Positions 12,200 through 49,800 of a stretch of 64,000 nucleotides of DNA are shown here, one piece after another; within the stretch, counting starts at the first letter, position 1; each line of letters begins with the position of its first letter. The translations under genes were made by a program, and so were the position numbers. A model generated the notes under the pieces. The model was not told the origin of the DNA. It saw only the letters and a list, made by a program, of their open reading frames with translations, and did not search any database. The stretch is taken from assembly GCA_964626635.1 (NCBI GenBank), contig CAZVFY010000001.1:47782-111781 (forward strand), given 5' to 3'. Origin of the DNA: an uncultured Candidatus Saccharibacteria bacterium. Lineage in GTDB: Bacteria; Patescibacteriota; Minisyncoccia; Phycocordibacterales; UBA918.

Positions 12200-13225
12200 T
12201 TACTCAGCCAATGTGTAGGTACCGTTACTGAGTCGTTTGAACAAATTAGAATCTTGCAAATTTACTACGATAGTGTTGTCTTTGACATAGCGTTCGCGAC
12301 GGACACGGTCGATGATCTCTTCGCGTGATAGTGGACCTTCAGCGTCCAGAATGTCACGTAGGACCTCTTTGACGACGCCGGCAGTGTACCCCCACTCGGA
12401 CAAAGCGTACAGTCCGCGCCCCACGAGGACAAACCGATCGTCTTTAATCAACTCGTTGTGAGTAGTCGCGATGTGTGCTTTGTGTTCAAATAGTTCGTTG
12501 ATCGCTTTGGCAACCTCACGAAAGTGCATTGGTGATCCGTGACGCTTGACCGCGAGGTACGCGTAGTCCCGGATACCTTTGACGCGGATATTTGGACTTT
12601 CGGCGTGTCCCCAGTCCCCTAGCGGGTTTTGGTTAATTTGCTTTGAAATTTTGAGCCAGCGGCGCAAGACTTCTTCGGTGTGTTCTTCGGAAAGTTCAGC
12701 CAGTTCAGTTTTAAAACGATTGATAATATCTTGCTCGGTCACCAGATCATCACGCTTGAGGCTTTTGCGAACTTGGCGTAAGGCTTTTTCGACGCTGTCC
12801 GCTACTTTTTCTTGAGTGTACCAACGATGTGCATAGTACGGGTTCTCTTTACTGCGGTAGAACGTGTCCCCCACCACCAGGAGGAAGTACAGGTGATTAC
12901 GCACCTTTGGGTCTGTTGTCAGTTCGTCGAGTAGGACGTGTTCGGCGACCACCCCACCACCGAGTTGATCGATGAGCTTTTGTAATTCCAAAAATAGCTC
13001 GTAGTGCTTTTTATACACATCAGACTTTTGGACTGACTGGATACCGTAATTTTCGATCTGACGTACCCGTTCACGCGTGATGCCGTAGGACTGGCCAATG
13101 GCTTCGAGGGTGAAAGTTTCACCATCTTTGTTAAGGCCATAGCGCTTTTCGAGGACGTCGCGGGCGCGTTCTGGCAAAGCATCGAGTAATGCCTTGGTGA
13201 TTTGTTGTGGTTTAAATGAAATCAT
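12200..13225 (-). CDS. Sigma-70 region-4-like HTH fused to a HARE-HTH domain (putative DNA-binding regulator)
   Basis: The likely real start is M17 (MISFKPQQ) at 13225. The listed ORF extends to 13273 through a hairpin. LPERARDVLEKRYGL...TLEAIGQSYGITRERVRQIE is a sigma-70 r4 signature. C-terminal SPMHFREVAKAINE...DDRFVLVGRGLYALSEW matches the HARE-HTH pattern. Confidence 0.55.
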   Translation of the reverse strand: MISFKPQQITKALLDALPERARDVLEKRYGLNKDGETFTLEAIGQSYGITRERVRQIENYGIQSVQKSDVYKKHYELFLELQKLIDQLGGGVVAEHVLLDELTTDPKVRNHLYFLLVVGDTFYRSKENPYYAHRWYTQEKVADSVEKALRQVRKSLKRDDLVTEQDIINRFKTELAELSEEHTEEVLRRWLKISKQINQNPLGDWGHAESPNIRVKGIRDYAYLAVKRHGSPMHFREVAKAINELFEHKAHIATTHNELIKDDRFVLVGRGLYALSEWGYTAGVVKEVLRDILDAEGPLSREEIIDRVRRERYVKDNTIVVNLQDSNLFKRLSNGTYTLAE

Positions 13226-13338
13226 AGGTGGTGATTGAATGTTTGTGTGTGCGCAGCAAAACTTGCTGCGCACTTCAATGCGTGTTGTTATTTATAACAT
13301 ATTGGCAGAATATGGTCAACAACTCGCGATTGCCATCG

Positions 13339-16155
13339 TTACTGCACGATATTGAGGATCCGACCTGGCACATAGATCAACTTGCGATGCGGCTGTGGGG
13401 GTAATTTATTTGCAAGCGGCTTATCAGCCAAGGCTGCCGCTAGCGCCTCAGCCTCACTAGCGTTCGGCGCAATGGTGATGTTACCACGAACTTTGCCATT
13501 AACCTGCACGCCGATAGTGACCTGCTGGTCTTTGGCTAAATCAGCGTCATACGTCGGGAACGCGACTGTGTGCACACTTCCCTCACCATTTGTCTCACTC
13601 CACAGTTCTTCGGTAATGTGCGGCGCAAACGGCGCGAGGAGGCGTAAGAACGCCATATAACTATCATTGGTGAGACCAGTTTTCTCAACGGTATTGATGT
13701 AGATCATCATCGTGCTGATGGCCGTGTTAAACTTGAATGTTTCGATATCACCGCTTACTTTCTTGATAGTTTTGTGAAGTGCGCTGGTGGCGTCGTTCGG
13801 CTCATTGTCGGCAATGTGCTCTGATAGGCCATACACACGCTCGAGGAACCTTCGTGCTCCGACCAACCCATCCTGACTCCAGGCGATGGTGTTCTCGAAC
13901 GGGCCCATGAACATCTCGTACACACGCATGGTGTCAGCCCCGACAAGCGCGACGATATCGTCTGGATTGATGACATTCCCCCAGCGCTTAGACATCTTGC
14001 GTCCATTCTCTGCCAAAATAAAGCCAAGGAACTCGAGGCGTTTGAATGGTTCTGTCGTACTAACGACGCCGATATCGTAAAGGAACTTGTGCCAGAACCG
14101 CGCGTAGATCAGGTGACGCACCGCGTGGTCACCGCCGACATACACATCGACCGGAAGCCAATCTTTTTCTTTTGCGGGGTCAATAAGCTGCGCGGTATTG
14201 CCAGGGTCGACGTATCGCAAGTAGTACCAACTACTCCCCGCCCATTGCGGCATGGTGTTGGTTTCGCGCGTGGCACTGACCAGTTCTTTACCGGCCGGTG
14301 CTTCATCTGTCACCATAAAGTCACCATCATCGGTCAGGTAGCCGGTGACATTGACCCAGTCGTCGATGTTCGCTAGTGGCGAACGACCGTCACCAGCGGG
14401 CGCGTAATGCTCGACGTCTGGCAGAGTGACTGGTAACTGAGACTCGGCCACCGGTACGGCAGTACCGTCCGCGAGGTGCACTATCGGGAACGGCTCACCC
14501 CAGTAGCGTTGGCGCGAGAATACCCAGTCTTTGATTTTGTACGTAGAGGTCATGCGCCCCCCGACTTTTTTGGTGATGGCAACTTTGGCTTCCTCGGTAG
14601 ACATACCGTCAAACTCATTTGAATTCATTAGTTCTCCAACTCCAGTATTTACACCCGCCAGTGCTAAAGCAATGGTGCTTTGTAAAAATTCCGATGCTTT
14701 TTCTGCTTTAAGATCTGCAGCTGATGCTGCTTGGATAATTCCCGCACCCTCGCATAGAGTAAGTGAACTAGGATCAATATCTTCCACAACAAAAATCGCT
14801 ACAAATTTGCCGTCTTTTCGCTGATGAAATTTTAATAACCTGTGGGAAGAATGATGTTTGGTCAAATCAAGCATTAGTTCTTCTTTCGTCTCTCGGACAA
14901 CTGTCTGCCATACAGTCTCTCCCACTTCCATACCGCCACCAAAAACAGCAACTCCGCCCGGGTTTGATGGGGCATGTAAATCGCGCCTTTGGTAAAGAAA
15001 ATGTCCATCTGTAGTTTTTAAAATTAGTCCTGATGCATCAACACCGTCTGGAGCAGCGGGTACTACAACTTGCTTCACCTCGATTCCAAATTGCTTCGCA
15101 AACGCATAATCACGCTCGTCGTGCGCTGGTACTGCCATGATCGCGCCGGTGCCGTAGCTCGCGAGGACGTAGTCAGCGATGTACACCGGAATGGTTTCGT
15201 CGCTGGCTGGATTAGTTGCCGTGACGCCCTCTAATTTTATCCCGGTCTTTTCCTTGGTGTCGTCGAGGCGATCCATTTCTTTTTTGTTGGCTACATCCTC
15301 TATGTACGCCGCGACCTCATCCCAGTTCTCGATGGTGTTTTTGTGTTGCTGCACCAGCGTGTGCTCGGGCGTCAGTACCATGTACGTTGCACCGTATAGT
15401 GTGTCTGGGCGCGTTGTAAATACTGTGACCTGGTCACCAGTAGAAAGCGTGAAATCTATTTCCGCCCCTTCACTTTTCCCTATCCAATTACGCTGCGCTT
15501 CTTTGATATGTTCTGGCCAGTCGAGCGTGTCAAGGTCAGACAGAAGTCGATCGGCGTACCCACGAATACGCAGGGTCCACTGTCGCATCGGCCTTTTCTC
15601 GACCACGCTATCGCAGCGCTCGCAGGTACCATCGGCCTCGAGGTCTTCATTCGCGAGGCCGGTTTGACAACCCGGGCACCAGTTGATGGGTTCGTGACTC
15701 TCGAACGCGAGGCCTTTTTTGAATAACTGGATGAAAATCCACTGCGTCCATTTGTAGAACGCTGGGTCGGTGGTGTTGATCTCTCGTGACCAATCGTAGT
15801 CGAACCCAAGCTTCTCGAGCTGACTCTTAAAATTCTCGACGTTCTGGTCGACGGCTGCGCGCGGGTGGACTTTATTTTTGATCGCGTAGTTCTCGGCTGG
15901 TAAGCCAAAGGCGTCCCAACCCATTGGGTGGAGCACTTCGTGTCCGGTCATACGCATGAAGCGGCTGTAAATATCGGTGGCGATGTAACCTTTTGGATGT
16001 CCGACATGTAGCCCTTCCCCGGACGGGTACGGGAACATATCGAGGACAAAACATTTTGGCTTTTCAGAACTACTATCAGTCTGGTAGATCTTGGATTCTT
16101 TCCATGCTTGTTGCCATTTCTTTTCTATAGCAGCATGATCAAAGCGTTTATTCAT
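13339..16155 (-). CDS. leuS: Leucine--tRNA ligase carrying a Nudix-box insertion downstream of the CP1 editing domain
   Basis: 938 aa. HIGH (HVGHPKGY) and KMSKS (KMSKRWGN) motifs. Editing-domain TRPDTLYGATYMVLTPEH and GTGAIMAVPAHDERDYAFA. Extra segment at residues ~365-507 contains FGGGMEVGETVWQTVVRETKEELML. Confidence 0.95.
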   Translation of the reverse strand: MNKRFDHAAIEKKWQQAWKESKIYQTDSSSEKPKCFVLDMFPYPSGEGLHVGHPKGYIATDIYSRFMRMTGHEVLHPMGWDAFGLPAENYAIKNKVHPRAAVDQNVENFKSQLEKLGFDYDWSREINTTDPAFYKWTQWIFIQLFKKGLAFESHEPINWCPGCQTGLANEDLEADGTCERCDSVVEKRPMRQWTLRIRGYADRLLSDLDTLDWPEHIKEAQRNWIGKSEGAEIDFTLSTGDQVTVFTTRPDTLYGATYMVLTPEHTLVQQHKNTIENWDEVAAYIEDVANKKEMDRLDDTKEKTGIKLEGVTATNPASDETIPVYIADYVLASYGTGAIMAVPAHDERDYAFAKQFGIEVKQVVVPAAPDGVDASGLILKTTDGHFLYQRRDLHAPSNPGGVAVFGGGMEVGETVWQTVVRETKEELMLDLTKHHSSHRLLKFHQRKDGKFVAIFVVEDIDPSSLTLCEGAGIIQAASAADLKAEKASEFLQSTIALALAGVNTGVGELMNSNEFDGMSTEEAKVAITKKVGGRMTSTYKIKDWVFSRQRYWGEPFPIVHLADGTAVPVAESQLPVTLPDVEHYAPAGDGRSPLANIDDWVNVTGYLTDDGDFMVTDEAPAGKELVSATRETNTMPQWAGSSWYYLRYVDPGNTAQLIDPAKEKDWLPVDVYVGGDHAVRHLIYARFWHKFLYDIGVVSTTEPFKRLEFLGFILAENGRKMSKRWGNVINPDDIVALVGADTMRVYEMFMGPFENTIAWSQDGLVGARRFLERVYGLSEHIADNEPNDATSALHKTIKKVSGDIETFKFNTAISTMMIYINTVEKTGLTNDSYMAFLRLLAPFAPHITEELWSETNGEGSVHTVAFPTYDADLAKDQQVTIGVQVNGKVRGNITIAPNASEAEALAAALADKPLANKLPPQPHRKLIYVPGRILNIVQ

Positions 16156-19501: not shown

Positions 19502-20413
19502 TTAAAATGGCAACAGCGGTGGCTCGTATTCACAGAACACGACATCCTCGAACTCTGTGTCCAGCAGTCCCGCAAACGCAGCTACCGCCTGTGGCCGTCC
19601 GCCGATCGAGTCAATTAGGCCAACATCTGCAGCGCGGCGACCCGGCATAGTAGCACCGTTGGCGAGCGCCTCGACATCGGCGCGGTCTAGTTCACGGTAT
19701 TCAGCAACTAGATCAATGAATTCGTTGTGAATGATAACCAGACCTGCCTGCAGTAGTTCGCGCTCCTCGTCGGTGATCGGCCGGTTCGGGGTGCCAGTAT
19801 CCTTAAATTCACCGGTAATCAGTTGTACATAGGTCAAGCCTTCTTCCTCATTTTTTTGGGATTCTTCGACATAGGACATATTGACCCCAATACTCCCGAC
19901 ATCAGACATGGCAGACGCGAGCAGGAAATCTGTCGCCGCCGCGACCATGTACCCACCCGAGGCAGCCACGTCCCCCACAGTACCGACGACCGGCAAATCA
20001 GCGCGGTGCAGCATGTCAGCAATTTGCTCTGATGCAACTGGTGTGCCACCAGGTGAGTTGATCTCGACTAAAATACCCTCGATCAGCGAGTCGTTAGTGG
20101 CACTATCAAGAAATTCTCGCACCGTGGACGGCGTGATGCTCAGTCCAAAATCATCGAGGATCGCCAGCCCAGTAAATGGCAAGATGACGCCTTCTATTGG
20201 CAGAACGGCGATATTGCACTCACCGTCACTAATACCCAAGTCAGCACTAAATGTCGCTCCGAGCACACCGACAGTGGCGACGACTACCAGTACCACAGTA
20301 AAAACGGTAGCGACGGATTTAGCGGCCAACAAAACAAACTCTTTCCATAGTGGTCTCATGATCGCAATCATACCACGCAACCGGTCCAGTTGACGAAGAA
20401 GCCGCGAGCACAC
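19502..20413 (-). CDS. sppA: Signal peptide peptidase SppA (S49 family)
   Basis: 303 aa. N-terminal TM, S49 core (GDVAASGGYMVAAATDFLLA; SDVGSIGV). The real start may be an internal Met (MIAIMRPLW). Confidence 0.8.
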   Translation of the reverse strand: MCSRLLRQLDRLRGMIAIMRPLWKEFVLLAAKSVATVFTVVLVVVATVGVLGATFSADLGISDGECNIAVLPIEGVILPFTGLAILDDFGLSITPSTVREFLDSATNDSLIEGILVEINSPGGTPVASEQIADMLHRADLPVVGTVGDVAASGGYMVAAATDFLLASAMSDVGSIGVNMSYVEESQKNEEEGLTYVQLITGEFKDTGTPNRPITDEERELLQAGLVIIHNEFIDLVAEYRELDRADVEALANGATMPGRRAADVGLIDSIGGRPQAVAAFAGLLDTEFEDVVFCEYEPPLLPF

Positions 20414-20440
20414 AGTGTGCGCTCGCGGCGAGTGATGGGG

Positions 20441-20650
20441 TCAGCATTCGGCAGTGCGAATGCTGGTGCGGGTCAGTCCGACCGCAGTCGAACCGACCGC
20501 CACATAGGCGTGGCATGGTGCCGGATTCAACACCGGCGCGGTGGCTTGATGCACGGCCAGCGCGATACCAGGCAGGTCGCTGGAGACCTCGAGGTCGCTG
20601 CAGGCAGCGAGACCCAGCGCAAGGGCAATGATCAGCAATCGTGCAATCAT
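20441..20650 (-). CDS. Small lipoprotein (lipobox LAAC)
   Basis: 69 aa. MIARLLIIALALGLAAC signal peptide with lipobox. Its ATG overlaps the upstream gene's TGA (TGATG). Confidence 0.5.
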   Translation of the reverse strand: MIARLLIIALALGLAACSDLEVSSDLPGIALAVHQATAPVLNPAPCHAYVAVGSTAVGLTRTSIRTAEC

Positions 20651-20943
20651 CAGTGCCTCCCAGGGACGCAGGTGCCGCTGCGGCTCATGGCCGAGTTGAA
20701 TACGTAGTAGTCTGGCTGGCCGATCTCGCGGCGCACCCGGGCGTCAGTCCGCGTATTGATGCGCGGCACCGTCGGTACGTAGCCGGGCGGGCAGCCATCG
20801 ATCGAGGCCACTTGACCGAGGGCATAGTCCGTCGTGATGCGGTAGCCTTCTGCGGCTCGCATGACGCGCTCCTCAGCGGTTGGCACGGGCCCAGTGGCGC
20901 AGCCTGCCAGCAGTAGGCCTGTCAATGAGATGGTGATGCGCAT
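20650..20943 (-). CDS. Small lipoprotein (lipobox LAGC)
   Basis: Start taken at MRITISLTGLLLAGCATG. Translationally coupled to the downstream lipoprotein gene. Confidence 0.5.
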   Translation of the reverse strand: MRITISLTGLLLAGCATGPVPTAEERVMRAAEGYRITTDYALGQVASIDGCPPGYVPTVPRINTRTDARVRREIGQPDYYVFNSAMSRSGTCVPGRH

Positions 20944-21070
20944 GTGCGCCTCCTCCATAAATTTGATCGAGAGCTGTGGTTTCTACTAAAATTATACATA
21001 CAATTTAGCGAAAGTCAATAAATCACCTTCTGTTGGGAGCGCTCGTTATATTTAAAGTAAGGCGATGCAA

Positions 21071-21658
21071 TTATTTTGCCACTTTGCCGTGGCCTGCGGC
21101 CTGCTTTAGCCATTTGTTGCGGCAACTGTCATCGACCTTTTCGCAAGGGCCGTAAGTTGTCACTTGGGTTTTGATACCAGCAAATTCAAGAATACCGTAC
21201 TGAATTTCATTCGTGTAATCGCCGTACTGCCACCAGGTTTTGAAGGGGCTGTGCGATCCAGATAGTACATAGACGCGGGCGGTACGACCAGCGAGATGAC
21301 CTTCAACTTTCTTTGTTTCCTTATTAAAATTGAACGCAAACCCCGGCAACCAGGCCCGATCAAATAAGCCCTTTAGTTTGGCTGGCATGCTGCACCACCA
21401 ATTTGGGTAGGCTAACACAAAATGATCACACTCACGTATGGCGTCTTGAAATTCCATTAGGGCAGGTTCGAGTTGCTGAATCTCTTTGTAGCCCTTGTGC
21501 AACACTGGGTCAAAGTCCATGTCGCCAATGTTGTAGCGCTTGACAAGATGCTCTGCTTCTTCGGCAGCAACTTGATATTGATCTACCACCGAGCTAGTAA
21601 ACGAGTCACTATCGGGGTTACCACAAAGAATAACGATTTTCTTTTGTTGCATAGACAT
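21071..21658 (-). CDS. Flavodoxin-like fold NAD(P)H dehydrogenase (quinone) / FMN reductase
   Basis: 195 aa. KIVILCGNPDSDSF N-terminus and overall similarity to the NQO1/MdaB/Flavodoxin_2 family. Confidence 0.7.
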   Translation of the reverse strand: MSMQQKKIVILCGNPDSDSFTSSVVDQYQVAAEEAEHLVKRYNIGDMDFDPVLHKGYKEIQQLEPALMEFQDAIRECDHFVLAYPNWWCSMPAKLKGLFDRAWLPGFAFNFNKETKKVEGHLAGRTARVYVLSGSHSPFKTWWQYGDYTNEIQYGILEFAGIKTQVTTYGPCEKVDDSCRNKWLKQAAGHGKVAK

Positions 21659-21740: not shown

Positions 21741-22058
21741 TTAGGAATTGATAGATCCATCTGGCTTGAAGGCTCCGGGCATTTTGCCACCCATCATACT
21801 GGCGACTTTAGTACGCATTTCGGGACTCATGGCAGCCATGATTTCTGTTTGGTATTTTGGGAGGACTTTCATCGCCGCGGCCATTTGATTGTTACCGTTG
21901 GCTTTCATCTCGGCTTGCATTTCGAGGGCTACTTTCTGGAATAGCTCGGGATTGTTTTCGAGCATCTCCATAATCATTTGCTGCTGGTCCTCAGGGACGT
22001 TTTTCATTTGCGATTGCAGCATTTTTTTCATCGCCATGTTTTTTAGTTTTCCGAACAT
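21741..22058 (-). CDS. Met-rich small hypothetical protein
   Basis: 105 aa, about 18% Met (MFGKLKNMAMKKMLQSQMKN...AAMSPEMRTKVASMMGGKMPG). Reminiscent of an Ffh M-domain 'methionine bristle', but no NG domain. Confidence 0.4.
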   Translation of the reverse strand: MFGKLKNMAMKKMLQSQMKNVPEDQQQMIMEMLENNPELFQKVALEMQAEMKANGNNQMAAAMKVLPKYQTEIMAAMSPEMRTKVASMMGGKMPGAFKPDGSINS

Positions 22059-22176
22059 ATGCCGGATAGTGTAGCACGTCGCGAAAGCTATACCAAAACC
22101 ACTCGTAACAATGAGTAAGTATAGACAAATTAGTAAATTAGTGGTACTTTTCCGTCATTATATAAAAAAGTACAGT

Positions 22177-23712
22177 ATGAAAAAACGCACAGTTATTGCC
22201 GGGGTGGTTGGATTAGTAGTTGGTGGTGGGATTGCCTGGTTTATTTTTGGAGGAAGTGACGAAGCTCCAGCAGCGCTCGTAACTCCCGCGACCACCGTCA
22301 CTCTGTTAACTGCAGACTCTTACGCGAACGAAAACGCCCTGACTCTCATTGGGACCGTCCGGGCCGCGAGCGAGGCTCGGATAACTGCTGATCGGAGTGG
22401 TCGTGTCACGAGCGTGCCAGTGAACCTCGGCCAGAGCGTCGCCGCCGGACAAGTGATCGCTACTATTGAAAATAGCTCGGAACAAGCGGCAGTGCTACAG
22501 GCCGAAGGTGCGTACCAAGCGGCGCTGGCTGCGCGCGCGCAGAGCGATCTGGATGAACTAGATCGCGGTGTGGGTGTGGCAAGTGCCCAGACTGCACTGG
22601 AGGCTGCCCGCGAATCAGCAGTTAGTACGTACCGTAGCGCTGTCACCACCAATAATGCCGCTGTGCGTGGCACGATTGATCCATTTTTCTCTGATCCAGA
22701 TGGATTTATTCCTGGTTTGACTATTTCTGGAAAGGGCTTTACGAGTGAACTAAACGCTGAACGAGTCGAGTATCAGGATTTACTGCAACAATACCGCCAG
22801 CAAGCTGACACTGTGTCTGTTGATAGCGATTTGACGACCGAGTTACGTGACCTCAATGCGTACATTGACCGCACGGCTGAATTTCTTGATACATTTATAG
22901 CTGTTCTAGAACTCCAAACCAATGACGCTAGGTTTAGTAATGAACAGATTGCTGGTTTTATTACTTCATTTTCTAGTGCTCGTTCTAATCTCATCAACCT
23001 AGCGGCGTCGGTCGAAGCCTCTGCCACGGCCATCGAAAACGCCGAGGATGCAGTCGAACGCGCGCGCATCGCTGACGTGCGTGTCTCTGATGCACCACGC
23101 GCGAGTGACGCCCAAGTCACCCAAGCACTCGGAGGGTTGCGCGCCGCCCAGGCTAACCTCGCTAAGACGATCTTGCGTACGCCGATCAGTGGCACTATCA
23201 ACCAACTGTCCGTCCAGACCGGTGATTTTATCGGGGCGCAACAACAAGCAGCCCTAGTCGCGAACAACAATGCCCTCGAGATCGTCACGTACGTCAGCCA
23301 GGCTGAGCGCGACTTGCTCGCTGTTGGTGACACCTTGCAGGTTGAAGGCGTCACAGCGATTGTCACGGCGATTGCACCAGCAGTCGATCAGACTGTTGGC
23401 AAGATCGAAGTCCGACTCGCCGCAACATCCGATGACCTCCAAAATGGTGACACGGTCACCGTGACGTTTGTCGCCGACAGCCAAGCTGTCGTGGCTGGCC
23501 CGGTCATAGTGCCGCTCGCTGCGGTCAAGTTCACCCAGAATGATGGCGAGGTGTTCCTAGTGCGTGACGGTCTCCTCGTGTCACAACCTGTCACCACGGG
23601 CGCGGTCCAAGGTGGCGGAGTCGTGATTACTGCTGGACTGAATAGTGATCAGGTATTCGTGGCCGACGCGCGCGGATTACAAGCCGGCACCGCGGTAACT
23701 GTCTCTAATTAA
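22177..23712 (+). CDS. Efflux RND transporter periplasmic adaptor (membrane fusion protein, HlyD family)
   Basis: Start at MKKRTVIAG (M23 of the listed ORF). TM anchor, long Ala/Gln-rich coiled coil, C-terminal beta-barrel segments. Confidence 0.8.
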   Translation: MKKRTVIAGVVGLVVGGGIAWFIFGGSDEAPAALVTPATTVTLLTADSYANENALTLIGTVRAASEARITADRSGRVTSVPVNLGQSVAAGQVIATIENSSEQAAVLQAEGAYQAALAARAQSDLDELDRGVGVASAQTALEAARESAVSTYRSAVTTNNAAVRGTIDPFFSDPDGFIPGLTISGKGFTSELNAERVEYQDLLQQYRQQADTVSVDSDLTTELRDLNAYIDRTAEFLDTFIAVLELQTNDARFSNEQIAGFITSFSSARSNLINLAASVEASATAIENAEDAVERARIADVRVSDAPRASDAQVTQALGGLRAAQANLAKTILRTPISGTINQLSVQTGDFIGAQQQAALVANNNALEIVTYVSQAERDLLAVGDTLQVEGVTAIVTAIAPAVDQTVGKIEVRLAATSDDLQNGDTVTVTFVADSQAVVAGPVIVPLAAVKFTQNDGEVFLVRDGLLVSQPVTTGAVQGGGVVITAGLNSDQVFVADARGLQAGTAVTVSN

Positions 23713-23713
23713 T

Positions 23714-26700
23714 ATGTGGGACTTCTTCATTCGCAACAATCGGTTTGCGTACTTGTTTATAGTTGCGCTGATTGGTGTCGGTACGTTTAGTGTACTCAAT
23801 ATTCCCCGCGAGTCCTCACCAGAAGTCATCGTGCCGATTGGTGTCGTCACCACCGTGCTGCCGGGCGCGCCGGCGGCTGACATCGAGACATTAGTCACGA
23901 ACGAAATCGAGCGCGGCCTCACTGGACTCGAAGGTGTCGACTCGATCACTTCCGTGTCACGAGAAGGGGTCTCTAGCGTCACCGTCGAGTTTGACGCGTC
24001 AGCTGACGTCGATGAGTCGATCCAAGAACTCAAAGACGAAGTCGACCTCATTCAGTCAGACTTGCCGTCTACAGCAGAAGACTCAATCGTCTCAGAAGTT
24101 AATCTCCAAGATTCACCAGTACTGACCGTCGCGCTGTCTGGATCGTTTACCGATCAAGAATTCACCGCGATCACCAGTGACCTCGAAGCCGAAATCGAGA
24201 CTATCGCTGGCGTATCTCGAGTAGAATTCAGTGGTGTACGCGATCGACAAGTATCAGTGCTAGTCGATCAGGCTGCGCTCGATCAGTTTGGCATCACGCT
24301 GAATACGGTAATCGATGGCTTGCGGGCGGCGAACCAAACTTTCCCGATTGGCCAAATCGAAAATAACGGCATTTCTTATAACGTCGCCTTCGAAGGCGAC
24401 ATCGCCAGTAGCGAAGTCCTCGGGAACGTTGGTATCGCGAATGTGTCAGGACAGCCAATCCTCGTGCGTGACATTGCGCGGGTCGAAGACGGTTTGTCAC
24501 CTGCCAGTTCCCTATCGCGACTGAGTGTCGATGGCGCGCCGTCAGAAAGTGCTGTCGAAATGAATGTTTTCAATCAAACTGGTGGCGACGTCACGCGTGT
24601 CACCACGGCAGTCAACGAACGCCTGGCAGAACTACAGGCTGAAAATGAGGTGCTGGACGGTATCACGTTGGCGGTTATTCAGGACTCGGGCGAGTTAATT
24701 TTGGATGACCTGATTAACCTATCGACATCAGGTTTGCAGACTATCATTCTGGTTGTGCTGCTCTTAGTGGTTGCGATTGGCTGGCGAGAAGGCTTGATCG
24801 CTGGAACCGCTATCCCCTTGTCATTCTTGTTTGGGTTCATCGGGCTGTATTTCAGTGGCAATTCCATCAACTTCCTCAGTCTGTTCTCGCTCATCCTGGG
24901 AATCGGTATCCTCGTCGACTCAGCCATTGTGATGGTTGAGGGTATCAATCGACGCATGAAAGAAGACCCAAACATTGATAAACGCGAAGCGGCTGTCGCC
25001 ACAGTGCGAGAATTTGCTGCGCCACTGACAGCCGGGACGCTGACGACTGTCGCGATGTTCTCGGGGTTGTTTATCGTTAGTGGAGTGATCGGTCAGTTTA
25101 TCTTTAGTATTCCGTTCACAATTATCTTTCTCTTACTCGCATCGATTTTTGTCGCGTTGTTCATTGTGCCGCTAATTGCGTCGCAATTCTTGCGTCGTCG
25201 CAGCACGACAAAATTGGAACAAAAACAGAACGAACTGTCACGCCGACTCGAAGGCTGGTACCGCCACAAACTCGATTGCATCATTGGCAACAAACGACTC
25301 GAGCGACGGTTCATTTGGGGCGTGCGGGCTGGATTAGTAGGAGCCATCCTATTGCCAGTCATCGGTCTGGTGCCAGTGGTATTCTTTGAGCAAGGCGACG
25401 TTGACTTTGTCATTGTGCAACTAGAAAACGCCGAGGGTACAGTCAAAGAAGTCACCGACATCGGTATTCGTCGCGTCGAAGAATTCTTATACGACAAACC
25501 GTACATCGAATCATTCTCGACTACGGTCGGGAGCGGCAGCCAGTTTGCCGGTGGTAGTGCCGGTGAGAAATTCGCCAACATCACCGTCAATTTGCGTGAA
25601 GATCGTGACGTCACTAGTACCGAAGTAATCGACGCGATCCGTACCGATCTGGCGGTTCTGTCTGACCTCAACGTCACAGTTGATCAACCGAGTGACGGGC
25701 CACCGACTGGCGCCGCGGTTGTGATCAAATTCCTCGGCGATGATCTCAGCGCGCTAACCAGGCTGGCCAATGAGTCAGCCAATGTATTGCGCAACATTCC
25801 TAACACCGTCAACATAGAAACGAGCACCAACAATAACAACACCGAGTTCGTCATTAATCTAGACAATGCCAAGGCAACCGCGCTCGGTGTCTCGCCTTCA
25901 CAAGTATCACAGGTGGCCCGTACTGCGCTGTTTGGGGCTGATGCGACATCTCTGACTACTCTCAACGACAGTATTGACGTCGTCGTCAAACTAAACCTTG
26001 ACGGCGATCCGACCATTACTGCCGACACCAGCAATCAAATTAGTATTTCTGACCTCGAGCGCTTGACGATCAGCAGCCCAACTGGACCGGTCACTCTGTC
26101 TTCAGTAGCTGATGTAACACTGCGGGAATCCAGCACAGTCATCAATCACGAAGACGGCGAGCGCGTCGTTAGTGTCACTGCTAATGTCGGGCCCGAAGGA
26201 AACGCCCGCGAGATCCAGGCCACTGCTGTTGAGCGCATCCAGTCCGAGGTGGCCATTCCTGATGGCATTACCCTCAGCACCGGCGGTGGTGAAGCCGAAG
26301 AGTCCAACGAAGCATTCATAGAGATGTTCCTGGCCCTGATCATCGGGATAGGACTGATGGTCGGTATTCTCATTCTGCAGTTCAATTCGTTCTTGCACAC
26401 CAGGTACGTATTGTCGATCCTCCCCTACTCACTGATCGGTGTACTCGGCGGACTGGCGATCACTCAGAATCCGCTGTCCTTCCCGTCTATCATGGGCTTT
26501 ATCGCGCTATCAGGAATCGTGGTCAACAACTCGATCCTACTAATCGACATGATGAATAACCTGCGCCGCAAAGACATGACACGACCGATCAAGGATGTGG
26601 TGCTCGACGCGGCGACTAACCGGTTACGGCCAATTCTACTAACGACCATTACGACTATCTTTGGGGTGGTGCCGCTACTGTTCGCTGGCTCAATCTGGGT

Positions 26701-26851
26701 GCCGCTGGTGTACGCACTGATCTTTGGGCTATTGTTTGCGGTAGTCATTACCCTCTTTACCATCCCAATTACGTATGCCCGCAAACCAGGCAGTCTGCCA
26801 GGTCAGATTGATATGGTGGCTTCTACAGACCAAACCGTACAATACAAATAG
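23714..26851 (+). CDS. Efflux RND transporter permease (AcrB/HAE1-like)
   Basis: 1045 aa. 12-TM RND topology, two large loop domains, conserved FSILPYSLIG...ALSGIVVNNSILLID segments. Confidence 0.9.
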   Translation: MWDFFIRNNRFAYLFIVALIGVGTFSVLNIPRESSPEVIVPIGVVTTVLPGAPAADIETLVTNEIERGLTGLEGVDSITSVSREGVSSVTVEFDASADVDESIQELKDEVDLIQSDLPSTAEDSIVSEVNLQDSPVLTVALSGSFTDQEFTAITSDLEAEIETIAGVSRVEFSGVRDRQVSVLVDQAALDQFGITLNTVIDGLRAANQTFPIGQIENNGISYNVAFEGDIASSEVLGNVGIANVSGQPILVRDIARVEDGLSPASSLSRLSVDGAPSESAVEMNVFNQTGGDVTRVTTAVNERLAELQAENEVLDGITLAVIQDSGELILDDLINLSTSGLQTIILVVLLLVVAIGWREGLIAGTAIPLSFLFGFIGLYFSGNSINFLSLFSLILGIGILVDSAIVMVEGINRRMKEDPNIDKREAAVATVREFAAPLTAGTLTTVAMFSGLFIVSGVIGQFIFSIPFTIIFLLLASIFVALFIVPLIASQFLRRRSTTKLEQKQNELSRRLEGWYRHKLDCIIGNKRLERRFIWGVRAGLVGAILLPVIGLVPVVFFEQGDVDFVIVQLENAEGTVKEVTDIGIRRVEEFLYDKPYIESFSTTVGSGSQFAGGSAGEKFANITVNLREDRDVTSTEVIDAIRTDLAVLSDLNVTVDQPSDGPPTGAAVVIKFLGDDLSALTRLANESANVLRNIPNTVNIETSTNNNNTEFVINLDNAKATALGVSPSQVSQVARTALFGADATSLTTLNDSIDVVVKLNLDGDPTITADTSNQISISDLERLTISSPTGPVTLSSVADVTLRESSTVINHEDGERVVSVTANVGPEGNAREIQATAVERIQSEVAIPDGITLSTGGGEAEESNEAFIEMFLALIIGIGLMVGILILQFNSFLHTRYVLSILPYSLIGVLGGLAITQNPLSFPSIMGFIALSGIVVNNSILLIDMMNNLRRKDMTRPIKDVVLDAATNRLRPILLTTITTIFGVVPLLFAGSIWVPLVYALIFGLLFAVVITLFTIPITYARKPGSLPGQIDMVASTDQTVQYK

Positions 26852-34824: not shown

Positions 34825-37116
34825 TTATACATGCCCTAAAGATTCGTCTCGGTGTGGACTGTTTAATTTTAGACTTAATCCCAGAAGTAATAGCAACACT
34901 CCAATAGCCAAAAGCGAAACTCCTAGCACAGTCGTGACACTGCTGGTATCGTCCTGAGAAGTGAGTAGCACTGGTTCTGATACAGTAACTGGGGTTTCGA
35001 CAACGGTGAAAGCTTCAGCCTCCTTTACAAATCGGAAGGGATCAGTCTGAGCAAGAATGGCGCCGGTGTTATCAGTAAGTGCTACAAACACTTGATGTTC
35101 ACCATCTTCTAGTTCTCGTTCAAAGGTATACTCAAAAACGCCTGTTGCGTTCGTTCGCACGGTTACAATAGTCGGCGTGCTAAAGAGATACAGTGTGACA
35201 AAACTGTTTGGCAGTGCCCTACCTCGTACTGTGGTTTTAATAGTTGGTTCATCAGCCACCGCGCTCACGTCAATTAAGGGTGTCACCGAATCAATTTTTA
35301 ATTCTGGAATACGAGGTACCCCAATGGTAGTTTTAGGTGATTCGTATACAATCGCTGCTTCTGCAGATGCATCGGTGGGATTAAATCCGCGAATAATTTC
35401 TGCCCCATCAGTAAAGCCGTCGTTATCGGTGTCAACCAAAGTGGGGTCGGTATTGAATAGCGTCACTTCATCAACATCGCTAACGCCATCGCCATCTGTG
35501 TCAACGGCCGAATCAGATTCGCTACGCTCTCGACGCACGTCCTCAAAAGCAATGACCGATGCTTGCATAGTTTCTAACGCCGCCTGTAATTCTCGAGCTA
35601 TGTCATCAGCGATGAACCACTGTTCGTCATTGGCCAGCAACTCGCGCAAAATTACGCTTTGATACTGAGATATATTTGTCTCGGCGGCCGCTATTAAAAC
35701 CGGGTCATTAGATTGTACGGCGATAGACAGTTGAGTAAATAATTGATCCAATTCTGCTTGGTCGGCCAAAATTCTATCGGCCACAATGGCTTTTATTGAA
35801 TCAGTGGTTGAGGTACCAGTTTCAAAATCTTGATATAAATCAGCATTGAGCTCTCTCGTGATGGTGAGCAAACGACCGGTTTCCAGTGCTGCGCTTTCGG
35901 CCGGTGTTATGTTGTCAATTGTAACTAATTCTGAATTGGATTCATCAATTGCTCCATCAGCAGAACTGCGAGCATACAACTCGTAGGAGCCATTGGGTAG
36001 TTGAGCACTGTTGAACACAAAAGAACCGGCTCGCGGTGGCGAAGCAACCGAACCGATTAGTTGTGAACCTGTTGATTGAGCTGATCGTGCAAAAAATTGT
36101 ATATTATCAGCTTGGTTTTGGGTTGTGTATTGAAAAGATACAGAGTTTGTGATGTTTCTTGGTGCAGTGATGGTTACTACATTAGTTGCTGCGCTCAGCG
36201 CTTGCTGTTCAACCATGAACCTGGCTTGTTCAGAGGTAACAACATCGTTGCTCTCCCCTTCTATTCTCACAGCTTGGTCATCAATTGGTACCGCAAATGA
36301 GGCGAGCTGGTAAGTGTCGACATTACCGATACGGTCACGAATGTTGACAGCGACTTGATACATCGCTGGGTCCAACTCAGAAACTGGTATAGTCGTAGCA
36401 AATTTATCGTTTCCAAGCGGGTTAACTGACAGATCAATATTCTGACTTACACCACGTTCGTTCTGAAAGAGTAAAGTAGCATTGACACTATCAGTATTGG
36501 GGGCAGAAAATGTGAGTGTTTCAGTGGCACCTAGGGTGCCTGACAAGCCATCAATAATTTTGACATGACGACTAGGTATAGAAGCCTTTACTGCAACAGT
36601 GCTAGCTTGAGACACTAAGGCTGGCTGACAATCTGTAGTGCAACCGGCCTCATAGACTATAGATTGATAAAGTATTCCGGCACTCACTAACGTAAATATG
36701 ATGGCACCAATAACACTGCTAGCAATAGCGCTACGATACAAGTACTCGTCTGCGTGCTCATAAAGGAGCACCACCTTATCTTTGAGTCTTAGCGGGACAT
36801 TGGTTGGGAGTTCGACCACAGCTGAGTGTGCTGGTGATGCTGTTTGATTTATTTTATGCGTTCGTCTACGGTTAGGGCTCTGTGGTGATTTAGCGCTAAC
36901 AGTAGCGCGCTTTCGCGTGGTTGCTTTTTGTTTTGGGGCTGTTGCAGCGACACTCTTAGAGATTGTAGAACGGGTGATTTTTCGGGCGGTGGAGCGTGGC
37001 TTAGCGGTACGTGCGGTCGTAGCGACACCCTTCGGAGCTGCTACTTTTTTAGTTTTTGTGACCGGAGCTTTTTTACTGGTCGTCTTTTTCTTGGGTTCTT
37101 GGGGAGTCAGCGCCAT
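34825..37116 (-). CDS. Large bitopic surface protein: Lys/Ala/Thr-rich histone-H1-like cytoplasmic tail, TM, extracellular domain with thrombospondin-type-3-like Ca-binding repeats, C-terminal TM
   Basis: 763 aa. KKKTTSKKAPVTKTKKVAAPKG... N-terminus, TM VIGAIIFTLVSAGILY, DTDGDGVSDVDEV...DTDNDGFTDGAE repeats, C-terminal LLAIGVLLLLLGLSL. Confidence 0.5.
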   Translation of the reverse strand: MALTPQEPKKKTTSKKAPVTKTKKVAAPKGVATTARTAKPRSTARKITRSTISKSVAATAPKQKATTRKRATVSAKSPQSPNRRRTHKINQTASPAHSAVVELPTNVPLRLKDKVVLLYEHADEYLYRSAIASSVIGAIIFTLVSAGILYQSIVYEAGCTTDCQPALVSQASTVAVKASIPSRHVKIIDGLSGTLGATETLTFSAPNTDSVNATLLFQNERGVSQNIDLSVNPLGNDKFATTIPVSELDPAMYQVAVNIRDRIGNVDTYQLASFAVPIDDQAVRIEGESNDVVTSEQARFMVEQQALSAATNVVTITAPRNITNSVSFQYTTQNQADNIQFFARSAQSTGSQLIGSVASPPRAGSFVFNSAQLPNGSYELYARSSADGAIDESNSELVTIDNITPAESAALETGRLLTITRELNADLYQDFETGTSTTDSIKAIVADRILADQAELDQLFTQLSIAVQSNDPVLIAAAETNISQYQSVILRELLANDEQWFIADDIARELQAALETMQASVIAFEDVRRERSESDSAVDTDGDGVSDVDEVTLFNTDPTLVDTDNDGFTDGAEIIRGFNPTDASAEAAIVYESPKTTIGVPRIPELKIDSVTPLIDVSAVADEPTIKTTVRGRALPNSFVTLYLFSTPTIVTVRTNATGVFEYTFERELEDGEHQVFVALTDNTGAILAQTDPFRFVKEAEAFTVVETPVTVSEPVLLTSQDDTSSVTTVLGVSLLAIGVLLLLLGLSLKLNSPHRDESLGHV

Positions 37117-46817: not shown

Positions 46818-49800
46818 TTAGAATGCTGGCGCTGCGATGTAGGCCACATCGGTCGCGTACTCACCGGCTGGTTGGAGCGCTGTCACGCTCGCGCGATAGA
46901 CCACGTCATGGGTGTCGACGGTTTTCTGGGCTGAATACATAATTTCTTGTGGCGTCGTATGAAGTGCCGCGTAAGCATCAGTCGGCGCGAACCGCGTCGA
47001 GCCACCCGACAGCGTGCCGTCAGTGGTGTGATATCCCACACAGCCAGTACCACTGCTAGAACAGGCACTGGCCCATCCAGCCGGCGCATTGTTGGTGCTG
47101 GTGATGTTGGCAATACTGTTACCACGTCCATCGATTAGTCCGCTGCGAGCGTACTTGTACACTCGGTAGCCATCAGTCGCGTTCGTGTCGATTACCAATC
47201 GTTGTGCCGCAATCACATCAGACCCCAGTGGTATTGATCCAAACCGGACGCCGTCGGCTGTCGTCGAAGCTGTTGTCGTGACGCCAGCAGTGGTGGTACC
47301 GCTCGGTACGCCATTAATGGTAAAGGTAAGGTTTGCGCCGTCAGAAACCAGTGAGGGGTAGCTCGCCCCATTGGCGAGCGAGACCGGCCGGCCGCGACCA
47401 ACGTCGTACAGCCGGAAATAGTAGACAATATTGGGGCGCAAGGCGGCTGGACTGATCGTAAACGAGTACTCTTGGGCTGCGCTCGCGGTGTGCGTGTGTC
47501 CGGTGACATACGCTCCAGCGCTATTATGCCGACCACAACCGCTACCGACGCTACTACTACAACTATCGGCACTCGCCAAGAGCGCAGTCGTGATAAGAGT
47601 GTTGTCGGACACAGCACCAGTATCGTAGCACCAGGGATCAGCTAGGGTACAGGTTCCAATCGGATTCAGTGTGTCCGCACTGCTAAAATCCGCCAGTGTT
47701 GAGACTTGCAGCGCGAACTTGGTGTCGACTCCTTCGACGTTTTTGGTTTCTGGTACCACTATTCGCAGCGCTAGTGTCGAAGAAGCACCAATGTCAGTCG
47801 GGGCGGTGTCGGGGTTTGCTCTTGGCTGCACTGGCGTTTCAGTTGCAGAGTCTTGATACCAACGCCACTCGCCAATCGCGGGTGAGAAATCTGCGGTACG
47901 CAACTGCGGATAATGTAAATAGCCGCGCAAGGGTGTCCCGCCACGCTCAACCATGCGGAAACAATATGGTGTATCAATAGCGGCGCCGTTATTTTCAAGA
48001 TACCAATCGTACTCGACCTCCTCTCCGTCAAACACGCGATAGGTATTGGATGCTGTGTCATTCTGCTGCTCGAGCGTACCGGCCACATCCGACACTGACA
48101 ACAGCAACTCACCAGACGTAGGCGGATCAGTCGACAACACATCGCCATCAGTCGTATTTGTCGAAGCATGCCCGCGCCAAATAGTGCTAGCCGCAGTGCC
48201 GCCCACGTCGCTCCAGGTCGCCACGGCACTACAGGTCGTTACCCGCTCGGCAAACTGCAACGTAAAGCGAACGAAGTCTTCGGGCAGGTTCGCGTTGCGC
48301 GCCTCAATTGACATCCGCAAGCGCAACACATCCCCGACGCCTGGCGGTTTATCGAGATCGGTGATCGAGGTATTTTCACCGAGGTCAACAGCCCCCGCTG
48401 GCCACGGATCGCTCGGCGTCAGTTGGTCATTATCGTCGTACCACCGATAGTAGCTTTGCTGGTATTGCAAATCAGCGATTGGCCACTGCACTAATTCGAC
48501 TTGGTAATACAACGTTTCACCAGTATCACTACGCCAAATTGCGTAAGTGGTGGGGTTAATAATTTTAAGGCCAGCAATCGAGCGTGGGTGGGCGTTATTG
48601 GTACCGTCAGCTGCGCTACTACCGAAAATCGACGCATTACTCACCGCTGATAGTGTGTCGGAAATACTGAGTGAAGACAGTAACGGCTCAGAGCCGCCCC
48701 GCATCGAGCCGCTTTGGCGTTCAACTTTCATGGCGCCAGGGCCTGTCTGCGTGTTGGCGATAACCCAGGCGACACCAGTGTGCGTATTGGTCATGTCCGC
48801 GTCGGCTGCGAGGCGGAACGAGACCGCACCGATACTAGACATGAACACTTCGTGTCCATGTGACGCAACCAGTGAATTACCAGTCATGCGCTTTTGCGGG
48901 TGCAAGAATGTCTGGGACAATGCGGGCACCGCGGTGATGCTCGCGGTCTCGGTCGTGCCAGCCTGAGTGTACACATGCTCGACACGATCAATTTGCCAAT
49001 TGAAGCCGGTGTATTCAACCACCGCATAACTGACAAAGGCAGTCACCCCAAGGGTGGCCGCTCGAGTAAATTCTGGTACATCGAGTGTCTCATTCCAGTC
49101 GCTCGTGAACTGCGTCGTATGGAAATCATTGGCCGTGTCGTCTCCCCCAATCCCAGTGATGAATACCACTACATCTGCATCATCTGCAATCGTGACACTT
49201 GGCCCAGCGACGGTGGTATCACCAAGACCAACCGACACCACCCCGACGTCGCGCACGATCATTTCGTTATCGGTGGTAGGTCGACCAATAAATTCAATAA
49301 TCTCCCAATCAATCCTCGTTTCATTAAGGTTTATGTCTCGCGTAAACGTAATACTAGTGTCCAGATTGTCGGGATTCTGAATGTAGGCAGTGACCTCCTC
49401 GACGTCTTGTGAGCCACCGCCATTAATATCGCCGGCTCCAGTGTGATGGGTGTTGGTAATACGAATAAATGCAGTGCCAGTTGCCGCTGGCGGCGTGTAG
49501 TCGGCACCAGCGGTGATGGTCGTATTTAAGCCCGTCAAGACAGTTGTACCACGCTGCGTCTTAAAGTCTTGTTTGGCAGACATAATGATCTGGGGGTATT
49601 GCTCGTAGCCTTCGAGTGCTTCATTATTGGCCACCAGTCGGAAGCAATAGGTGGCTTCGAATGCAGTCGCGTTCGTACTGGTCAAGCTAAACTCATACTC
49701 AATAAAAGTGTCTGCGGCGAGCGAGATTGCGCTCGTGCTGGCCGAAGATTCTCGTACCCCGTCGATACCGACGAACGTGGGTTCCCGGTCTGCGATACCG

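Follow-up and report, generated by a model that had tools for sequence, protein, structure and literature searches.

A GC-rich pair of small lipoprotein genes, probably native to a hypervariable slot between a flavodoxin-like gene and sppA in a clade of Patescibacteria

We analysed a window of 64,000 nucleotides from an uncultured Candidatus Saccharibacteria bacterium (contig CAZVFY010000001.1; all positions are those of the window), in which a short GC-rich islet (20390-20960) lies between a flavodoxin-like gene, here called flav, and the signal peptide peptidase gene sppA. The islet carries two small genes on the minus strand, lpA and lpB, that encode predicted lipoproteins. We consider it probable that the islet consists of a native two-gene operon, complete in itself, that occupies a hypervariable small-lipoprotein slot between flav and sppA of a Patescibacteria clade and, as part of the same explanation, that its high GC content is a trait of the cassette or the slot that arose in place, and is not the fingerprint of a donor. 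Judged from their sequences and gene order, lpA and lpB constitute two unannotated families of small lipoprotein that are confined to one syntenic slot of this one clade.

The first-pass annotation of this DNA had described a jump to about 65% GC with AT-rich flanks, and a composition and codon usage that looked foreign. The jump is borne out by windowed GC and tetranucleotide analysis: GC content is 64.8% in the islet versus 50.9% for the whole window, which corresponds to z=3.6 against all 570-bp stretches of it (mean GC 0.509, standard deviation (sd) 0.038). The islet's value is reached by just 0.06% of these stretches, and the GC maximum of the 64 kb (0.654) falls at 20381-20950. Likewise, the tetranucleotide composition of the islet is the furthest of all 570-bp stretches from the window average (L1 distance 0.608; mean 0.413, sd 0.044), and its GC-normalised dinucleotide signature lies in the top 1.35%. 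Of the two flanks only the upstream one, on the promoter side, is AT-rich (GC 0.33-0.38 around 20925-21000); toward sppA the GC content does not differ from the genome average. GC at the first, second and third codon positions (GC1, GC2 and GC3) is 0.61, 0.58 and 0.79 for lpA and 0.66, 0.56 and 0.69 for lpB, where the long open reading frames (ORFs) of the window have a GC3 of 0.52 (sd 0.07, n=44) and a GC2 of 0.42 (sd 0.055). Taken together the two genes have a GC3 of 0.753 versus 0.551 expected from their amino-acid sequence and the codon usage of the window, and an excess of this size is reached by 0.24% of 166-codon segments of the window's genes. Their 166 residues include no lysine at all and are enriched in Ala, Pro, Arg, Gly and Cys. 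Both genes terminate with TGA; the stop codons of 43 long ORFs in the window are TAA (31), TAG (10) and TGA (two, at 507-1637 and 52997-54784). For lpA the choice of TGA follows from the ATGA-type overlap with the start of lpB, which forces it. We conclude that the atypical composition holds at both the synonymous (GC3) and the non-synonymous (GC2) level, and that the foreign look was correctly observed. Across the islet and its junctions, four independent assemblies (SRR7428105, SRR7428122 and the JGI metagenomes 3300040789 and 3300040787) show 100% identity; the junctions are therefore real and the islet is no chimera.

Relatives of the two proteins are hard to find. A word-indexed search of 5.8e9 proteins with lpA alone matched only lpA itself, and three-sequence profiles of both families, searched against the same collection in the same way, returned the queries and one more lpB-type protein (P0008). 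With a HMMER profile, 1.84e9 representative proteins yielded just 20 lpA relatives (E<=1e-3), and the closest relative shares about 33% identity with lpA. Genomic context was retrieved for nine lpA relatives, eight of which lie in a flav-cassette-sppA slot, while the contig of the ninth (1.2 kb) is too short to tell; the source of one relative is labelled 'Patescibacteria group bacterium'. We further assembled 93 related loci, 13 from genomes by scanning for SppA and 80 from metagenomes by scanning for the flavodoxin-like protein. All 93 are from metagenome-assembled genomes or metagenomes of the candidate phyla radiation (Patescibacteria), and the gene order flav, gap or cassette, sppA, ychF is conserved across them. 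Labels among the relatives vary: Paceibacterota, Saccharibacteria, Nomurabacteria, Kaiserbacteria and 'Patescibacteria group'. With iterated profiles, at least 15 further loci (L002, L004, L019, L025, L031-L033, L035, L036, L040, L044, L049-L051 and L059) proved to carry lpA/lpB-like genes in the slot, so that the islet does have counterparts at the corresponding position in related Patescibacteria, a point that the first-pass annotation had proposed to check. The slot is empty, with 5-116 bp between its borders, at L003, L013, L021, L022, L024, L026, L027, L029, L043, L072 and L073, and other slots hold one to three small lipoprotein genes with frequent stop/start overlaps. Its content varies even among loci whose flav proteins are 78-80% identical: L003 is empty, L017 and L018 carry one gene, and L015 and L019 carry two to three. 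The annotation had also suggested a locally conserved, highly expressed cassette. The conserved part of this suggestion stands, since the slot and the protein families are kept across the clade; high expression is only suggested, by the promoter with 11 of 12 consensus matches and the ribosome-binding sites described below.

A different small lipoprotein family, with the motif ...KPSRAQ..FPRGE..C.T..., was seen in the slot at L005, L007-L012, L054-L057, L063 and L074. Its genes are usually GC-richer than their locus (0.52 versus 0.43 at L008, for example) and are followed by a gene for a conserved multi-pass membrane protein of 131 aa (MEQYTWYATLIKPTWAPP...) that has a TspO/MBR-like look.

The GC excess of the cassette proved to be common to the relatives. 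In 17 of 20 non-redundant loci the cassette is GC-richer than its host, as measured on resident long ORFs or neighbours, with a mean difference of +0.063 (Wilcoxon p=6e-5), and across the 20 loci cassette GC tracks host GC with a slope of 1.14 (Pearson r=0.69, p=7e-4). Both levels of composition contribute in the 16 loci for which codon positions were compared: GC2 is raised by 0.07 (higher in 14 of 16) and GC3 by 0.10 (higher in 11 of 16, p=0.009). TGA stops are enriched in the relatives' cassettes (6/22 versus 15/210, Fisher p=0.008). The relative most like the window, L098, has neighbours at 0.555 and a cassette at 0.652. Locus GC of the homologues ranges from 39 to 55%, and the maxima among the relatives are 0.54 for locus GC and 0.555 for neighbour-gene GC. 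As no sampled background exceeds 0.555, the genomic composition of a donor cannot explain 0.65. Moreover, cassette GC rises and falls with that of the resident genome at a constant positive offset, as expected from evolution in place under a local bias and not from a fixed high-GC source.

The first-pass annotation had favoured acquisition of the islet from a high-GC host lineage such as Actinobacteria, and we find a recent transfer of this kind scarcely credible. It can be seen why the proposal was attractive: nothing else in the window departs as strongly in composition, and 65% GC, a GC3 of 0.75, the absence of lysine, the enrichment of Arg, Ala, Pro and Gly and the TGA stops all resemble an actinobacterial gene. 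However, all eight informative contexts are the same Patescibacteria slot, homologues are present in relatives of 39-46% GC, and none was seen outside that slot among the 5.8e9 proteins and the 1.84e9 representatives. Homologues confined to the corresponding locus of related genomes are the outcome that the first-pass annotation had itself named as refuting its proposal. DNA and protein searches of plasmid and phage collections returned nothing similar. The borders of the islet, where direct repeats had been suggested as a sign of insertion, show no convincing direct or inverted repeats and no integrase, transposase or tRNA, the neighbours being flav and sppA themselves, and the operon has its own sigma-70 promoter and Shine-Dalgarno sites in a native intergenic spacer. 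Thus, of the features by which a horizontally acquired islet may be recognised, we found the atypical composition; homologues occupy the corresponding site in relatives, and neither donor homologues nor insertion scars were seen.

Sequence divergence in the slot is rapid. In the two closest pairs of loci, non-synonymous divergence (dN) of lpA is approximately tenfold that of its neighbours: for L031/L033 it is 0.35, versus 0.037 for flav, and for L099/L100 it is 0.62, versus 0.056 for flav, 0.097 for sppA and 0.066 for ychF. Synonymous divergence is saturated in every usable pair, so that positive and relaxed selection are inseparable and the dN excess alone is reported. Similarity of lpA follows that of the flanks for the closest pairs alone. 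The slot is, as far as sequence comparison can tell, a site of rapid divergence and gene flux.

Such flux raises an explanation in which the slot is native and the present lpA-lpB allele was recently swapped in within the clade, by homologous recombination through the conserved flanks, from a slot-bearing Patescibacterium of higher GC whose composition the islet would partly retain. We regard this combination of a swap and a GC-richer donor as unlikely, though deserving of some weight. It would account for the differing slot contents at 78-80% flav identity, the deviant tetranucleotide and dinucleotide signatures, the TGA stops in both genes and the absence of a correlation between lpA and flank distances at depth, and with the nearest lpA relative at about 33% identity the history of this allele is unsampled. 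Against it, cassette GC tracks resident GC with a slope near 1, which is unexpected if alleles move freely between genomes of differing GC; no sampled member of the clade approaches a genome-like GC of 0.65 (the maximum being about 0.555); and the offset recurs in 17 of 20 loci.

The organisation of the operon (all elements on the minus strand) is consistent with an autonomous unit. A sigma-70-type promoter, TTGACT-16 nt-TATAAT, with 11 of 12 matches to the consensus, is located at 20991..21018 in the AT-rich spacer that follows flav; promoter-like sites number three in 1 kb, versus 0.6 expected from shuffles. A Shine-Dalgarno sequence, GGAGGAGG (20949..20956), stands 5 nt ahead of the ATG of lpA (20650..20943), a 97-aa prolipoprotein that begins MRITISLTGLLLAGC, has the signal peptide MRITISLTGLLLAG with the lipobox cysteine at position 15, and is called likewise by NCBI and Logan (P0001). 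The second Shine-Dalgarno sequence, GGGAGG (20656..20661), lies within the 3' end of lpA and again 5 nt ahead of an ATG, that of lpB (P0004; 20441..20650). The 69-aa prolipoprotein encoded by lpB begins MIARLLIIALALGLAAC, and its signal peptide MIARLLIIALALGLAA leads to a lipobox cysteine at position 17. At 20648-20652 the sequence TGATG contains the stop codon of lpA and the start codon of lpB, which have base 20650 in common. The two small ORFs, their lipoprotein signal peptides and this overlap had all been pointed out in the first-pass annotation and were located as described. A 9-bp hairpin (inverted repeat I5, 20442..20465) spans the lpB stop codon and also forms part of the minimum-free-energy fold, and an intrinsic-terminator-like element follows at 20391..20429, in which a 13-bp G+C-rich hairpin (20429..20401) precedes UUCUUCGUCA. 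The 86-nt 3' region with both hairpins folds at -40.3 kcal/mol (z=-5.2 against shuffles), whereas the folding of the whole mRNA is only slightly better than that of shuffles (z=-1.95, a weak effect).

High GC by itself lengthens ORFs, and the plus strand of the islet also has ORFs of 105 and 91 aa, which raises the question of whether there is a gene pair here at all, the alternatives being ORFs that arose by chance in non-coding DNA of high GC, a structured RNA and an artefact of assembly. We give this next to no probability. GC3 exceeds GC1 and GC2 in the called frames of lpA and lpB, where it is highest, which fits genuine coding sequence; the lipobox and both cysteines beyond it are conserved in more than 30 homologous sequences; an Rfam search of 20000-21400 gave no credible RNA family (best E-value 0.52); and an artefact would not be reproduced identically in four independent assemblies. 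High GC also accounts for the long ORFs of the plus strand.

A further explanation attributes the raised GC3 to translational-selection codon bias in a very highly expressed gene pair, and the raised GC2 to the needs of secreted proteins rich in Ala, Gly, Pro and Arg. The near-consensus promoter, the strong Shine-Dalgarno sites, the higher GC2 in 14 of 16 relatives and the folding of the mRNA relative to shuffles are all in its favour; nevertheless we consider it highly unlikely. The genes with the highest GC3 elsewhere in the window encode UvrB, AlaRS, TGT and UvrC, none of them from a highly expressed class, and codons ending in G or C are therefore not evidently an 'optimal' set; the window has no ribosomal or elongation-factor genes by which preferred codons could be defined. 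Translational selection is also usually weak in slow-growing symbionts with small genomes.

The lipoprotein assignment was made by requiring an N-terminal signal peptide ending in [LVI][ASTVI][GAS]-C with the cysteine conserved. Both proteins pass, with LLAG-C15 in lpA and GLAA-C17 in lpB, and the cysteine is invariant in the 19 lpA-family and 15 lpB-family sequences. Two more cysteines are conserved in each protein: Cys51 (in a GCP motif) and Cys92 in lpA, and Cys46 and the C-terminal Cys69 in lpB. Within the lpA family the C-terminal cysteine is likewise invariant and the middle one is present in at least 90% of members; within the lpB family it is Cys46 that is invariant and the C-terminal cysteine that is present in at least 90%. 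One disulfide per domain may be proposed from this pattern. We define the cassette family as small lipoproteins with a cysteine before the beta region (GCP or PC) and a C-terminal cysteine, encoded between a flavodoxin-like gene and sppA, and lpA and lpB have all of these features. An AlphaFold2 model of lpA built on a 19-sequence alignment (predicted local distance difference test, pLDDT, 83) has a signal helix, a long helix at 23-46 and then four predicted strands (55-57, 61-71, 79-89 and 92-94).

Comparison with databases did not assign either protein. Searches of Pfam and NCBIfam with both proteins and their relatives found no family, only sub-threshold echoes at the level of the signal peptide (DUF7292, TrbK, TraN and LptM); PDB sequence profiles gave no match below E=0.02; and among solved folds and known families none matched lpA or lpB. 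Two of the echoes were followed up and rejected. Membership of lpB in Pfam DUF7292 (PF23964) would rest on 16.5 bits (E=0.0095) versus a gathering threshold of 27, with one of three lpB-family members matching, and the similarity of lpA to TrbK (TIGR04359; 11.9 bits versus a cut-off of 23, E=0.17) covers residues 5-24, which are the signal peptide. Paralogy of lpA and lpB was also rejected as unproven: when the signal peptides were left out, the full-length hhalign probability of 96% gave way to E=0.11 over 17 columns, and the likeness between the two is just the helix-plus-beta layout and the placement of the cysteines. In the representative search, the 4260-aa protein P0024 gave 13 weak matches to the lpA profile, mostly about 100 residues apart (individual domain E-values (i-E) of 0.007-9, whole-protein E=5e-4). 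These matches could point to kinship between the lpA fold and a repeat module in large surface proteins, or they could be compositional noise.

Several observations indicate that the two proteins belong together. Homologues of lpA and lpB co-occur in the same order, and their stop and start codons overlap in several relatives. In addition, two natural fusions occupy the same slot: P0020 (264 aa), with an lpA domain at 5-95 (i-E 1.6e-12) and an lpB domain at 198-262 (i-E 5.5e-11), and P0021 (241 aa), with an lpA domain at 4-93 and an lpB domain at 186-239 (i-E 7.6e-9). In both, the lpA domain is N-terminal and the lpB domain C-terminal, and the linker between them, some 100 residues long, is rich in Pro, Lys, Glu and Arg. 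From the coupling, the co-occurrence in the same order and the fusions we infer that lpA and lpB probably work together as a pair.

Some of our results weigh against a native operon. The islet is a strong outlier in its own genome by every compositional measure, and the use of TGA by both of its genes, when two of 43 long ORFs elsewhere do so, gives it a classic look of foreign DNA. Three of the 20 relatives have no GC excess. At depth, where descent may or may not be vertical, the distances for lpA and for flav show little relation (Mantel r=0.13, p=0.16). The lpB model, from a five-sequence alignment, is poor (pLDDT 58), although its elements come in the same order as those of lpA. Finally, neither Lgt nor LspA was found among the approximately 20 window ORFs scanned against Pfam, no search aimed at them having been made.

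We nevertheless retain the native operon as the probable explanation, with recombination-associated GC bias at a hot spot of gene flux as the most plausible, proposed cause of the composition; selection on mRNA or codons is a possible one. The fast divergence of the slot and its variation in gene presence and absence make recombination-associated bias a natural candidate, and higher GC3 in recombining bacterial genes has been reported (Lassalle et al. 2015; PMC4450053). On the working model, lpA and lpB would be exported through Sec, lipidated and then held at the outer face of the cell membrane, as a pair stabilised by disulfides, with translational coupling ensuring near-equal synthesis of the two. 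The pair could form a rapidly diversifying surface structure turned toward the environment, a host or phage, and the position of the cassette just upstream of sppA may reflect a heavy load of signal peptides from an abundant lipoprotein. A bolder version makes the flav-sppA slot a hot spot of recombination, where GC-biased gene conversion maintains the islet, and has a hypervariable, disulfide-locked lpA-lpB heterodimer at the cell surface set host or phage specificity. As a whole it is decidedly unlikely; if true, it would make lpA-lpB a compact 'specificity cassette' for episymbionts.

More generally, when a small symbiont genome contains a sharp GC-rich islet, that DNA does not have to come from the host, and compositional outliers can be native if their locus carries a persistent bias of its own; an attractive but wrong inference is thereby removed. 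In organisms that are contact-dependent and nearly uncultured, fast-evolving surface lipoproteins are reasonable candidates for factors at the interface with host or phage. As a small locus with clear borders, the slot also offers a test case for bacterial GC-biased gene conversion, the most interesting residue being the persistent, host-tracking GC excess at a hypervariable site.

Both proteins resemble generic Lgt/LspA-processed lipoproteins of monoderm bacteria in their short positive n-region, hydrophobic core, lipobox (L-A-G-C in lpA, L-A-A-C in lpB), a +1 cysteine that is invariant in homologues, and small mature domains of 82 (lpA) and 52 (lpB) residues after the cysteine. They differ in having no Pfam or NCBIfam family, in their confinement to one slot of one clade, and in being a coupled and sometimes fused pair. 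The only, very weak, echoes of specific proteins are phage T5 Llp (PDB 8a60, E=0.08) and the conjugative TrbK already mentioned, small lipoproteins that serve in exclusion or receptor blocking. Size, lipobox and a cysteine pair are alike, but the matches are essentially to the signal peptide and far below cut-offs, and lpA-lpB is carried on the chromosome in a conserved slot, not by a phage or plasmid. The Vsp and Vlp loci of Mollicutes show that host-associated bacteria with small genomes and no outer membrane diversify surface lipoproteins rapidly at dedicated loci. Rapid diversification of surface-anchored lipoproteins at such a locus would be common to both. The Patescibacteria slot, in contrast, has no tandem repeats, lacks a multigene family under phase-variable promoters and shows no sequence similarity to those systems, and its variation is between lineages, by gene gain, loss and replacement. 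In E. coli, protease IV (SppA) degrades the cleaved signal peptide of Lpp. There too a small lipoprotein, presumably abundant in both cases, is linked to a signal-peptide peptidase, here physically, as the cassette lies directly upstream of sppA in all relatives. However, lpA and lpB have no sequence similarity to Lpp, and since the lpA-lpB operon has its own terminator, co-regulation with sppA does not follow from adjacency.

The downstream border of the slot is sppA (19502..20371, minus strand), identified as a Peptidase_S49 signal peptide peptidase by Pfam match. Candidate starts are ATG at 20371 (289 aa, the JGI call), ATG at 20359 and GTG at 20413 (303 aa, called by NCBI and Logan). SppA homologues align only from about residue 10 of the 289-aa form, which is about residue 24 of the 303-aa form, and a start at 20413 would overlap the lpA-lpB terminator hairpin; a start at one of the two ATG codons is the more likely from sequence. 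A promoter-like site, TCGTCA-18-TATGAT with TG, was noted near the sppA start at 20396..20367. The upstream border, flav (21071..21658, minus strand), encodes a protein like NAD(P)H dehydrogenases of the Flavodoxin_2/FMN_red type by Pfam, with 60-80% identity in the 93 related loci. Beyond it on the minus strand, 21741-22058 encodes a 105-aa Met/Gln/Lys-rich protein with no Pfam match, located between the flavodoxin-like and membrane-fusion genes; a gene of 96-105 aa is present at this position in every relative examined. On the plus strand, 22111-26851 encodes a membrane-fusion protein (533 aa) and an AcrB-type resistance-nodulation-division (RND) pump (1045 aa; ACR_tran E=4e-176). This pair lies divergently beside flav-slot-sppA across the clade, in the loci that reach far enough upstream (L095, L097-L100 and L104), with no outer-membrane factor gene in view near it.

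Elsewhere in the window, on the minus strand, the leucyl-tRNA synthetase encoded at 13339-16155 (938 aa) has a NUDIX domain (PF00293, residues 375-469, E=5.5e-9) directly after its editing domain, an unusual insertion. In the 357-aa protein encoded at 12200-13273, sigma-70 region 4, close to the N-terminus, occurs together with a HARE-HTH domain, an atypical sigma-like architecture. Two probable surface proteins were also seen on this strand, one of 763 aa with TSP3 repeats and a bacterial Ig-like domain (34825-37116) and one encoded by a 2048-aa ORF with an unusually high GC2 of 0.52 (46818-52964).

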